Below, piece after piece: positions 6,201 through 12,200 of a stretch of 64,000 nucleotides of DNA. The DNA comes from Carcharhinus longimanus. Its lineage: Eukaryota. The DNA lies in contig JASCQW010000128.1 in NCBI GenBank assembly GCA_030264375.1, positions 12,334,333 to 12,398,332 on the forward strand, given 5' to 3'. The position numbers and the translations under genes are program-made. The stretch's first letter is position 1. Each line of letters begins with the position of its first letter. Under the pieces are notes generated by a model. That model was not told the DNA's origin. It searched no databases and saw only the letters and a program-made list of their open reading frames with translations.

Positions 6201-9200
6201 CAGACCAGTCAAGGTATCAGAAATGCATTTGCAGCAATCCTGTGCTATGCTCTGTGACTGCCTTTGCTGAGTAGTCAACAGTGTTGCAGTGCTTTAGACG
6301 AATGCACTGGTGCCATGAGCCATGTTCTGTGGGGATCGCCCTTGTCACTCTGGATCCAGCCCTGCACTTGGGCATGGGTCTGAAATAACTGTGGTAGCTG
6401 GTAGTCCCTTGAGATGTATGGGTCATGAGAGATCCCTGGGAAATGAGCACACGCCAGTATATTCCTTTTTTGGTGTCAGAGACTACTTGACTGTTAAGGA
6501 AGTGAAACACTAAATAGCAGCTGGCAGTTCCCAGGGAGCCCCAGTAGCCACCTCTATGGAGTTGATTCCATCCAATACCTGCGGAAACCCCACAATGGCT
6601 GCTAAGTCATTTGCTGAAATGGCTATCAGCATTTGTTGAGGATCAGATGGATCTGGTGGCTCTTGAATAGGATATTTGATACCTCTTGCATTGCACATAT
6701 ATGTCACAGCTTGGGAAATATTACACATATCCCTCTTGAAGCTCTGAAATGAGCTGCTTGCAAAGAAGTTTGGAGCCACAGTTCCAAAGACACAGGGTTA
6801 CAGATCTTGTTGCGGAAGTACACATAGGTCAGTAAGCACTTCCCAGGAATGTCTTAGCCATCTCTGACATTGCCTGTCACACATCTGGAGATAGCTGGTG
6901 TGCGTTCTGAACACGTTCTGACATGCCAATGCTCTTCAGCCCTAGTTGGGCTCCTCCTGACATCACTCCCCCTCGGCTTGTACCTAGTTTTCTGATGAAT
7001 CATCTCACCCAACACCTGAGGTTGGAAAAAATGGTTTGGTTGTGAGACCCAATGTAAATCCAGAAAATGGACCATGTGAAGAAGGCAAGTAGGCTTTTTT
7101 GACATGGCCTTCGTTCCTAGAGCAGTTGCAGTTCACCAGTGGGAATGCATGGCCCTCCACAGGCTGCACCCAGAACAACTCCCATCCCACAGTAGCCTCC
7201 TCCCACAACAATCTGATTTTTGAGCTAAATTTCCTTGCAGGACTTGATATCCAGCAAGGTGGCAGTTTCTTTGTAGCCATGTCAATGGACACTAACACTG
7301 TCACCCTGTAGCTGGAGCCCATGCACCTCCACCCTCCCTCTGTCACCCTTGAGCTTCCTCCCATCTACCTTCCCCTCACCACAATATTACCTTGCTCTTT
7401 TCCCCAATCAGCCTGGAACATCCAACCATCACCCCTGATTCAGAACCATTAATCCATCTTTCATCCTCACTCTAGCACCCCCACCCTCCCACCATCATCT
7501 TAGAGCATTTGTCGTTCACCCTTTATTTTCCCTTGACCCTTCTTCAAAGGCTATTGGCCTGCCTCCTCTGAAGCTGGGCCTGCCCTGCTTTAAANNNNNN
7601 NNNNNNNNNNNNNNNNNNNNNNNNNNNNNNNNNNNNNNNNNNNNNNNNNNNNNNNNNNNNNNNNNNNNNNNNNNNNNNNNNNNNNNNNNNNNNNNNNNNN
7701 NNNNNNNNNNNNNNNNNNNNNNNNNNNNNNNNNNNNNNNNNNNNNNNNNNNNNNNNNNNNNNNNNNNCCCATCCTCTTGCCAACCCAACCACTGTGCTAT
7801 CTGAGGACCTGAGTGCCACGCTTTCCACTATCATTCATTCCACTATGGACTATCCCCTGGTCCTGTCCCCAGAGTTAGACAAAGATAAAACCTCACTTCA
7901 GCTCCAAAGGTTGAACAACCTTGTCTGGTACATGCCATCTTTAAGCTATCATGAAACAGCATGCATTGGCCATACTAAATTCTCACTCAGTGTACCCGAA
8001 CAGGTGCTGGAGTGTGGCGATTAGGGGATTTTCGTAGAAACTTCATAGCAGTGTTAGTGAAAGACTACTTGTGACACTAATAAATAAACTTTAAAAAATT
8101 TTTTAAACAAAAGACACAAGTTTCCCATGTGCCAATAACCTAATCCTGAAGGAAAAACTTAATTTGGTGTGCTTCCCAATTAACGAGTATTCATGGTATG
8201 CAAATGAATGGCAAATAGAATCCCACCACCAGGCACTGCATTGGCAGTTCTGCTGCTGGCACACTACCCACTTTGTCTCATAAAGTCAACCCACTATTGA
8301 GAAGCCAAGATTTGGGCTTTCACCTACTTACGTCCCNNNNNNNNNNNNNNNNNNNNNNNNNNNNNNNNNNNNNNNNNNNNNNNNNNNNNNNNNNNNNNNN
8401 NNNNNNNNNNNNNNNNNNNNNNNNNNNNNNNNNNNNNNNNNNNNNNNNNNNNNNNNNNNNNNNNNNNNNNNNNNNNNNNNNNNNNNNNNNNNNNNNNNNN
8501 NNNNNNNNNNNNNNNNNNNNNNNNNNNNNNNNNNNNNNNNNNNNNNNNNNNNNNNNNNNNNNNNNNNNNNNNNNNNNNNNNNNNNNNNNNNNNNNNNNNN
8601 NNNNNNNNNNNNNNNNNNNNNNNNNNNNNNNNNNNNNNNNNNNNNNNNNNNNNNNNNNNNNNNNNNNNNNNNNNNNNNNNNNNNNNNNNNNNNNNNNNNN
8701 NNNNNNNNNNNNNNNNNNNNNNNNNNNNNNNNNNNNNNNNNNNNNNNNNNNNNNNNNNNNNNNNNNNNNNNNNNNNNNNNNNNNNNNNNNNNNNNNNNNN
8801 NNNNNNNNNNNNNNNNNNNNNNNNNNNNNNNNNNNNNNNNNNNNNNNNNNNNNNNNNNNNNNNNNNNNNNNNNNNNNNNNNNNNNNNNNNNNNNNNNNNN
8901 NNNNNNNNNNNNNNNNNNNNNNNNNNNNNNNATGTGACTCCCAGCCTGTGTTCAACAGGGAGCAACTGGAGAGCTGGCTGTGTACAGATGTACGGTGTAA
9001 ATAAAGTATCTTGGTGACTGGACTTTCACCCCCATGGAGTTATTGCAGTGTCCTTGTGGCACATTTTCATTGCATCATCGATACATCACTTAAATGTTCA
9101 TTCTTCATTGTGTCTGCTTAGAACGTCAGCAGGATAGTTGGTTGCGAGGAGCCTGACATCTGCACACAAATGCTTTTTAGCAGAGAGGTCTATGGTTAAT

Positions 9201-12200
9201 TACCAGTGACAGGAGGTCTGGTGGATTACTTCAGTATCCCAGCAACGTTTCCAACTGTAATGCTGCCGCCTTAACCTATCTGAGATTAATTCACATGCCA
9301 AAATTTAAACAACTGGACATCAAACCCCTTGACCTTCCTGGTTTATTGACTTAAAGTGTAAGTCATTATTGTCATATTTAATAATGAGCCAATACTTGCC
9401 TGGCAGGAGAGAGTCAATGATCAGGCAGGTTGATTTCTGTGGCTAGGGGAGAGTCAATGATCAGGGTAGCCAATAAGGTTTAACTGAGGTATCACCTGCT
9501 GCAATTTTTCAAAGCCATCTCGGCCTTTTGGCTAAGATAAAGCATCAGGTCAAGCCTTAGAAGTGCAATACCTCATTTTGTTAGCTTGGATCTTGTTTGT
9601 CTCTCTCATGGGGACCATGAATTGGATTCAATTTAAATTTGCTTTTATGGATGGAATAAAACAATCTTTTAAGTGTTCTCATTAGTCAAGTGTTCTTTAA
9701 CTAATAAAACAAAATGAATAGACATTTTATTAAAACGAAGGTCCTCACAGCCTTCCAAAAGCAATAATGCATTCATGATTGAACAGTGCAATTCAGAGAA
9801 TTTCTATAGCCTGTTTTTTGTGTTATAGCAAACACTGAGACCCCGATTCCCCAGTGTCATGTCAACTACTCCTGAACCACCTTGCAATGATTCAATTCTA
9901 CGGAGGACTAGGGAAGAAGAACGGGAGTTGCCACATAGAAGGTAAGAGATGCCCCGTTACTGGATAGGCAGCAAGTGATATTGGAGAGTTTATGACTTTA
10001 TACAAATTGTCCCTGCTAAATGCTATCAGTGTACCATATCGCCAGACTATAAATCACTTTCAATTATTGTTACTACAAATTGTAAGGAGGACTATAAACC
10101 ATAGGAAACACCAGCCCCTAACTATCCGCACTACACACAAATGGAGCTGGTATCACAAATGTACATCATCTTGGGATTGTTTTGACACCTGCTAATCTTA
10201 AAGGGATGTTCCAGTTTCCCAAAAACCTTACAGGGCCCCATTTAGCTCTTTGCACTTTTCTCTATTTATTTCACCTTTCTCATGCTCCCAGCTGTTTTGA
10301 ATATTATTTGATCCTTTTCCAACACTTTTGATTTCTCAGATTGTTGTACATTAACTTTTTTTTCGCAAAACCTTAGAACTTCTCACGTCCCCTGAAGCAT
10401 TGCTTCAAACTGTGGAACTTCACAATTCCCACGGAAATCACTTCACTCTACAAACAAATACAAGCTTCATACCATCTGATTCCCAAATCTTTCTTACCTC
10501 CATGTTTCTCCTTGATTGGCAATCTTGGTGGTATCCTTCATGGTGGACTTAGACCTTCCTTCCAGATGTACTAAATAATTTTTTAAAATGATATGACAGA
10601 ATTAATGTATGTGCTAACACTGACCTGCTACAGTAGATTATTCTGCTAAGCTCTGAGCAGTCATTAGGTAGATTTAACAGCTAGTTACCCATCGTAAACA
10701 CTTCAGAAGACCATAGATATCCCTTAACTTTAAACTCAATATTAATACACTCATTAACAAATAGCAACCTTTCCCTCGGATTTGGCATGAAAAAATATAA
10801 TTTAATTGATCTGCCTTTTATTAATCCCTGTTAACTGTAGATGTTTGATCTCATTATGCATCGAAGCTTTAGGACTGTTTATTGAGCTTAGTTGCAAGCT
10901 GAATTTCACTGTCAGGTTTGGATACATTCTTCTGCTGAAAATTCACGTAGATACGTCTGGTTGTCTTTTCACCATTTCCTTGTGTTCACTTTAGTGCCCA
11001 TCAATATTACCGAGTGTACAACAATAAATAATAATTAGATTTTGTACTTCTGCTTATGTTTATTTCTGACCATTCAATTTGTAATGAATTTCTTTTTATT
11101 TCATTGTCATTTTAATGAATATTGCAGTTGTCAAGGTTGGGAAATGAAACCATGAATGAATCCATTTTTTTTTGTCATTCAGTTTCAGGATCAAGTAGTC
11201 CTGAGGCTCATACAACATGGTTAGATGCAGATGAATGTTCTCATCAACAACGTGTCTTTCACGTAAGCTGAGATGAGCTGCCTCCACAGCTCCAATGTGA
11301 CACCCCTGTGCAATACAAAGCATTGAATGCCAATTTAGAGATGCTTCGTACTGAATTACGGGTTAGTGTCTCANNNNNNNNNNNNNNNNNNNNNNNNNNN
11401 NNNNNNNNNNNNNNNNNNNNNNNNNNNNNNNNNNNNNNNNNNNNNNNNNNNTGAATTCAAACTTAATTTTCAGGTGTAGAAAGAAGGTATCCTAACCCAC
11501 TCCACCACCTCTGGGTAACACAGTAGTTAGCACTGCTGCCTCACCACCAGGGATCTTGTTTCGATTCCTAGCTTGGGCCACTTTCTGTGCAGAGTCTGCA
11601 CATTCTCCCTGTGTTGGCGTGGGTTTCATTCAGGTACTCCAGTTTCCTCCCACACTCCAAAAGACGTTTTGCTTAGGTGCATTGGCCATGTAAAGTTCTC
11701 TCTGTGTACCTGAACAGGCACCAGAGTGTGGTGACTAGGGGATTTTCACAGTAATTTCATTGCAGTGTTAAGCCTACTTGTGACAAAATACAAAAAAGCT
11801 GACACCTGTTCATTAAAAAATGGATGGTCTTTCACTTTGAGTAATGACTATATTTTCATATTTTGCTCAATCATCTCGTCTTATGGTAACATTTTTCCTC
11901 CTTCCATAGTGCCCATTTGAAGAAATACAGGTAAATTTTCATGAAACTCACCTGGTTTGTAACCCAAATTGCCCACTGCAAATGTTTGTCTGTATCTCTC
12001 GTCTGTTGTGCCATGCTGTACTCATGAATGTCTCGTTCTTTTGGTGAAAGTTCAGACATTAGTTGCATCTTCATTTTGGTCTTTATGTCCTGTAAACCTG
12101 GTTGTGCAGCCTGTGCAGTGGCAGATTTATGGTTTGGCCTGCTTGTTGGTGAGGAATGGAGGAGAGTGTGGTTTGAGTTGAAGGTGATACTTGACTGATT

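Follow-up and report, generated by a model that had tools for sequence, protein, structure and literature searches.

SINEU-like retroposons derived from U1, U4 and U2 snRNAs in the shark Carcharhinus longimanus, and their probable Keno-like partner LINE

In the accessible portions of Kojima 2015 (PMC4494074), SINEU retroposons are reported from crocodilians only, none having been seen elsewhere, and their transcription is left open, the promoters of U1 and U2 being outside the RNA. As described there, SINEU-1, -2 and -3 share many properties with the shark family reported here: they are short, A-tailed and headed by snRNA sequences, they received recurrent 5' additions of U1 or U2, and they contain internal T runs. 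They also have no tail in common with a LINE, they form tandem copies around a target site duplication (TSD) and their partner is a Tx1 element near Keno. The same portions draw an analogy with the Alu monomers FAM and FLAM, which, like the present elements, turned a modified cellular RNA into a poly(A)-tailed SINE. However, the 7SL RNA of Alu has an internal Pol III promoter, whereas U1, U2 and U4 have none. Likewise, the internal-promoter head of Pol III SINEs (tRNA, 5S or 7SL) is absent here, since Rfam finds only U1 and U2 and there is no B box. Processed snRNA pseudogenes and U6/L1-type chimeras also consist of 3'-truncated snRNA pieces joined to other retrocopies and are present in this genome; they are one-off products, whereas the composites described below are fixed and amplified to hundreds or thousands of copies.

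A literature search, with most subscription journals and Repbase Reports outside its scope, returned no SINEU beyond crocodilians, no SINE with a U4 part and no LINE targeting U1. Furthermore, the accessible portions of PMC5786205, PMC7754599, PMC4758252, PMC8010984, PMC5381603, PMC5753468, PMC8869645, PMC3747384, PMC7245038, PMC8455134 and PMC5499810 contain no shark SINEU. There is nevertheless an appreciable, if minority, chance that the family is already catalogued in Repbase or Dfam.

The element lies in a stretch of 64,000 nt of C. longimanus DNA, called the window below. It shares ~90% identity with the majority line built from 30 copies of its subfamily (A), and its parts (Table 1) were compared with the U1, U2 and U4 genes of the genome itself. 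The first-pass annotation had the element start at U1 nt 1 and, further on, match the U2 5' end at 21 of 21 positions over nt 7-27; both placements hold, as does the presence of AATAAAA, at 9655-9661. Over the head, the window copy matches the U1 paralogue L053 at 43/46 positions. The 17-bp repeat noticed earlier does occur twice, at 9409 and 9449, but it is a second U1 fragment and a trait of the family, not an internal duplication peculiar to this copy (20/24 identical to nt 10-32 of U1 L049, p=0.012). One copy, L017, has a single U1 head only, of nt 1-34.

Table 1. Parts of the snRNA-derived element (positions in the window)
Feature	Position	Strand	Remarks
Whole element	9392..9661	+	Old copy of subfamily A, U1/U4/U2-derived SINEU-like retroposon
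Outer head, U1 nt 1-51 of the L053-type paralogue	9392..9442	+	45/51 in the window copy, 51/51 in the majority line
Inner head, second U1 fragment, nt ~11-34	9441..9465	+	Source of the 17-bp repeat
U4 nt 23-47 (5' stem-loop)	9466..9490	+	Majority line 24/25; window copy 21/24, p=0.002
U4 nt 106-132 with Sm-site-like T run	9491..9517	+	U4 nt 48-105 lost
U2 5' part, nt 7-34	9518..9545	+	21/21 over nt 7-27 (9518-9538)
Family-specific ~24-nt insertion and diverged U2 nt ~31-45	9546..9578	+	D-to-U2 alignment; predicted fold
Diverged U2 body, ~nt 46-106, up to the U2 Sm-site T run	9579..9650	+	Comparison with genomic U2 and subfamilies B and D
3' end with AATAAA	9651..9661	+	A-rich tail next in other copies

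The block that follows the heads had been likened to U1 stem-loop III and turns out to be U4. Its first segment, U4 nt 23-47, which we take to be the k-turn, occupies positions 75-99 of the majority line. Positions 100-126 match U4 nt 106-132 at 17/27 without gaps (p=0.004), versus 12-13/27 for three U1 genes. The majority line then matches U2 nt 7-31 at 24/25. The ~120 bp beyond, previously described as a non-snRNA body, are diverged U2: the body resembles nine of ten genomic U2 copies at p<=0.03 (p=0.086 for the tenth) and nhmmer gives E=0.002. Subfamily B matches U2 at E=1e-6, and for subfamily D the alignment covers U2 nt 4-158 (E=1.4e-15) and is interrupted near nt 40 by the ~24-nt insertion. 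A hairpin is predicted over this insertion and the neighbouring U2 nt ~31-45, presumably the branch-point pairing region; the T runs of the U4 and U2 parts are assumed to be Sm sites. The 3' end probably arose when the longer D form underwent a 3' internal deletion. Judged from these alignments, the element is snRNA-derived almost throughout. Rfam matches it to U1 (E=7e-9) and U2 (E=0.006), both under the gathering score, with nothing else at E<0.01, and no Rfam match in the window reaches the gathering score.

Both junctions are spanned by contigs of the public run X1, which is apparently from the species of the window itself; the contigs are almost identical to the window, with 2 differences over ~500 bp and none over 380 bp, so the element is not an assembly artefact. 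No TSD was detected around the window copy. Another high-copy repeat, with very high contig depth, lies just upstream at 8932-9030, beside an assembly gap.

With the element as query, 1,791 first-look candidates were obtained in the 2.68-Gb genome, and the 40 that were scored are 78-86% identical, the window itself excepted. Thirty fetched copies of subfamily A align end to end, with unrelated flanks, A-rich 3' ends and a mean identity of ~89% to their majority line. A 20-mer over the U4/U2 junction has 180 exact matches and 0 in the control. Since it is exact in only 8 of 30 well-matched copies, subfamilies A and B together are estimated at several hundred copies at least. The element is almost certainly one copy of a dispersed repeat family derived from U1, U4 and U2, and not a fortuitous pair of pseudogenes.

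Four subfamilies have the U2 core in common and differ in their heads; the candidate counts given for them overlap and should not be read as copy numbers. Subfamily A, the window type, has a majority line of 273 nt. In subfamily B (396 nt, 88% identity) the U1 head is longer and derives from another paralogue, a hairpin is duplicated and the end is longer too; B is the best match at 21 of the 30 loci sampled through the junction. Subfamily C (303 nt, 95%, 3,806 candidates) begins with U2 1-40 as its head, and its U4 part is degraded. Subfamily D (~225-245 nt, ~91%, 2,238 candidates) is without U4 and consists of U2 nt ~1-180 and an A tail; on top of this core, the other three subfamilies carry U4, as a piece or its remnant, and 5' pieces of U1 or U2. 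D, the simplest form, is probably ancestral, although it is not measurably older than A (90.8% versus 89.0% identity).

The U2 5' end is ~95% identical to U2 versus ~67% for the body, as predicted by repeated renewal of the head. Moreover, several copies carry one-off extra heads: U2 2-53 (L078), U2 15-54 (L206), U1 1-52 on a D copy (L268) and U1 10-59 on a B copy (L103); fresh U1 heads are also found on L061 and L065. The successive capture of snRNA 5' ends proposed earlier is borne out as far as repeated head addition goes; that proposal lacked U4, the third snRNA, and the tie between heads and target-site insertion into snRNA genes described below. The branch-point pairing region is replaced in D, A and B. 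In C, positions 41-62 of the majority line (e.g. the L222:1495-1560 region) resemble inverted U2 nt 19-40 and are predicted to fold back over this region, so that all subfamilies appear to disable it.

The copies bear the marks of retroposition. TSDs of 9-18 bp (score>=8) occur in 12 of 68 copies, above the controls with swapped flanks: 3/26 versus 1/156 for A, 2/14 versus 0/84 for B and 7/28 versus 3/168 for C. Four A and two C copies with incomplete ends or gaps were dropped from this sample, and the 14 B copies were chosen from 30 loci. The TSDs sought after the first-pass annotation are thus present as an excess at the level of the family, and not at the window copy. Many copies are 5'-truncated. 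No single dominant insertion target emerged from 136 flanks, in which the recurrent matches are the 3' end of a LINE, members of the family and one common repeat. T runs of 4-6 occur in all four majority lines, which contain no B box and one loose A-box match (in A and B) when scanned with box motifs in the forms that we assume to be standard; the T runs and the lack of a B box argue against transcription by Pol III. Tandem arrangements include C-C-C-B with repeated spacers (L219), A with D (L019) and A with A (L017). At L100:1379-1724, an older D copy is interrupted in its U2 Sm-site region by a B copy with an 11-bp TSD, and a further tandem copy, whose U1 head is short, comes next. Words of one C copy were found in 20 runs from 12 studies with ten organism labels (shares 0.26-0.71), and run X15, whose organism label is other than that of X1, yielded 100 contig pieces, mostly <95% alike.

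A link to a Tx1-clade LINE had been suggested in the first-pass annotation. A zf-RVT search led to one LINE family, which was sampled and which ends in poly(A). Among named proteins, the closest come from sharks (77% and 75%) and the next from amphibians, which points to a shark as host. Longer relatives, from sharks, amphibians and fish, carry an endonuclease, a reverse transcriptase (RT) and zf-RVT (PF03372 + PF00078 + PF13966), and one distant match is named TX1. Nine long "open frames" fetched as candidates for a full-length ORF2 proved to be N gaps and were rejected. Among 12 ends of this LINE in 25 loci, three are followed by a C copy, and C comes directly next in 3 of 30 ends of a second sample; by our arithmetic, the chance of such an adjacency is <1 in 10,000 per end. 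Conversely, a LINE end lies just upstream of 2/29 D copies and 1/29 C copies, and of 0/60 A/B copies, and the 3' part of the LINE matched none of 90 A/B loci.

A 3' tail in common with the LINE, as envisaged in the first-pass annotation, was not found: beyond the A-rich end, nothing is common to SINE and LINE (p=0.87, 0.017, 0.48 and 0.15 for A to D, the B value being uncorrected, AT-rich and not accepted). A LINE-derived body was also rejected. Among 30 matches to the body only, 20 extend into the U1 part, one has an extra U2 head and nine are 5'-truncated or cut by gaps; no common foreign sequence was recognised by eye over 230 bp upstream of them.

Further links come from insertion sites common to the SINE and the LINE. 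The junction between poly(A) and U2 nt 39, a position that the accessible part of PMC4640811 names as the flank of Utopia and Keno, has seven matches and 0 in the control; upstream are four LINE ends, two C copies and one bare A run, two of the seven matches coming from one region. The junction between poly(A) and U1 nt 37 has six matches and 0 in the control, with four LINE ends, one B copy (L278) and one C copy upstream. A looser U1 pattern gave eight matches, three of them unrelated, and one control match. The junctions at the two sites, without the looser pattern, amount to 13 in all, versus thousands of family candidates. Shared sites were seen for B and C and LINE adjacency for C and D; neither site yielded an A copy, and the link of subfamily A to the LINE is indirect. 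Like Keno, the LINE has a 3' junction at U2 nt 39 (four LINE ends among seven matches). In contrast to the strict U2 specificity of Keno, it is found at U1 nt 37 at four loci, most of its copies are dispersed and none of 30 sampled ends lies at U2 nt 39: its target specificity is relaxed. In view of the common poly(A) junctions and the adjacency, this Tx1/Keno-like LINE is quite probably the partner of the family, "Keno-like" referring to the U2 nt 39 junction and to the domains of its relatives, not to a tree.

The Keno-like LINE at U1 nt 36/37 was noted in four loci (L279, L281, L282, L283, L312), one with a U1 promoter upstream; L312 corresponds to G000:C122:49185500-49193500. A C copy that ends at the U2 nt 39 site has a 5S rRNA copy immediately next to its U2 head (L273:1883-2087, - strand). 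At L309 (G000:C4262:114-608), two D copies are each directly followed by U5 from ~nt 28-33, possibly a third target site. U5 was not retained as a third target, this single duplicated locus being accompanied by 0 exact pattern matches and no further case among 19 U5 matches. The SINE itself contains no U5 part.

The breakpoints of the heads lie at the nick or just past it: U1 nt 34, 38, 51 and 52, and U2 nt 34, 40, 53 and 54. Among these, U1 34, 38 and 51 and U2 34 and 40 are the head ends of subfamilies. Moreover, some interrupted snRNA genes retain their promoter. Ten loci have the upstream flank of L053-type U1 genes: six are whole U1 genes, two are degenerate and two are interrupted. One of the latter (L235) consists of the promoter, U1 to nt ~37 and a C copy (82%) whose 3' side is cut by another repeat; the other (L233) consists of the promoter, U1 1-46 and a LINE with an inverted 5' part. 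Among seven loci with the L052-type U1 flank, one, L312, is a U1 gene into which the LINE is inserted: the promoter and U1 5' end are followed by the LINE, then by U1 36-162 behind its poly(A). Since promoter DNA cannot derive from an RNA template, L233, L235 and L312 are insertions into genes. No promoter was recognised upstream of L273, L276 and L280. Searches with U2 and U4 upstream flanks found no SINE behind a promoter, a weak result for U2 as one intended U2-promoter query was partly a U5 gene. An intact master (promoter, snRNA start, whole SINE and rest of the gene) was found for no subfamily in this assembly, which is gapped and may collapse snRNA arrays.

On balance we favour, with some reserve, a scheme in which the SINE is copied in trans by the Tx1/Keno-like LINE and gains each new head, together with a promoter, by landing in a U1 or U2 gene. 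The LINE endonuclease would nick the U2 nt 39 and U1 nt 37 sites with relaxed specificity, and the LINE RT would recognise the SINE by its poly(A) alone. A SINE copy at such a site would sit behind the external Pol II promoter of the gene, and transcription from snRNA nt 1 would make the first 34-52 nt of the gene into a new head. For instance, a 15-nt target duplication of U1 nt 37-51 would give the exact 1-51 head of subfamily A. The snRNA-SINE hybrid would then found a new subfamily. For the U4 piece, template switching is the likely route, the search having revealed no target site in U4; a U4-headed intermediate was not encountered either among eight matches. As the main source of heads, promoter capture has in our opinion slightly the better chances. 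The whole combination, namely an independent shark SINEU superfamily, the first with U4, a Keno-like LINE that widened its targets from U2 to U1, and subfamilies founded by taking over the Pol II promoter of a live snRNA gene, is put forward tentatively, its chances being a little short of even.

It is rather unlikely, although worth serious consideration, that the same family and LINE acquired their heads solely by template switching to free U1, U2 and U4 RNA, the masters using unrelated flanking promoters and the insertions into snRNA genes being dead ends. The one-off heads without an upstream promoter (L078, L206, L268, L103) fit this equally well, the U4 piece has no known target site, 3'-truncated U4 and U2 retrocopies exist in the genome and, in the accessible portions of PMC4494074, template switching is argued for SINEU-2. 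However, a promoter cannot come with an RNA template, and L233, L235 and L312 have one; moreover, the head ends cluster at the LINE nick and up to ~15 nt past it. Template switching and promoter capture can coexist.

With regard to subfamily A, it is improbable that another, now extinct, poly(A)-recognising LINE moved it while the activity of the Keno-like LINE was confined to B, C and D. Such a division would agree with the lack of LINE ends upstream of A/B copies, of A copies at the U1 and U2 sites and of a tail in common with the LINE, a single LINE family having been sampled. However, the head breakpoints of A (U1 34 and 51, U2 34) are near the sites of the Keno-like LINE, A occurs in tandem with D and its sister B is present at the U1 site.

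It is very improbable that the family does not propagate itself and is either an accumulation of chimeric snRNA retrocopies that arose independently or a set of retrocopies from a single functional variant of an snRNA gene. In favour of this reading, all parts derive from snRNAs, D is similar to an entire variant U2 and the genome is rich in U1, U2 and U4 pseudogenes. Nevertheless, hundreds of copies share the same multi-part junctions, the four subfamilies have diagnostic insertions or deletions and different ages (88-95%), the branch-point region of D is replaced and no Rfam match in the window attains the gathering score. Chance adjacency of pseudogenes is ruled out by the 1,791 candidates and the 180 junction matches versus 0 in the control.

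The family works like SINEU, and the class features tested are present: a U1 or U2 head (C and D start with U2), a dispersed non-coding composite of <500 bp, poly(A) with occasional ~10-bp TSDs, recurrent 5' additions, and T runs without a Pol III promoter. This comparison was made with text descriptions of the crocodilian families and does not establish homology to them. In the accessible portions of PMC4494074, SINEU-3 is a modified U2, which D resembles, and SINEU-2 carries U1 on U2, as A does, with a U1/U2 junction at positions 53-58, near the 51/52 found here. The present family differs by its shark host, by its U4 part and by its targets, which are snRNA genes and not Mariner-N4_AMi. The match of its heads to the genome's own U1 paralogues points to an origin independent of crocodilian SINEU.

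A second, likely independent origin would show that SINEs built from snRNAs recur where a Keno-like Tx1 LINE is present. It would add U4 to the building blocks of SINEs and a candidate U1-targeting LINE, hence, if true, a non-LTR endonuclease targeting U1. Promoter capture, if true, would explain how snRNA-headed SINEs devoid of a promoter are transcribed. Since LINE nick sites, head breakpoints and promoter-bearing interrupted U1 genes coincide here, the question of SINEU transcription becomes directly testable. Furthermore, thousands of copies could pass as U1 or U2 pseudogenes in shark annotations.

Several observations concern the snRNA genes themselves. The genome contains several distinct groups of U1 paralogues (L049-L058, L227-L232), each with its own upstream flanks; in the L053 group, source of the head of subfamily A, the sequence of stem-loop I is altered. 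U5 and U2 genes are linked at L040:470-920 and at L294/L300 (G000:C99:26745694-26747209), with a repeat unit of ~1 kb in C99. About 300 bp upstream of a U4 gene, and on the strand opposite to it, there is an older C-type copy (L311:1801-2082) whose U4 remnant is more like that of A and B than are the remnants of young C copies.
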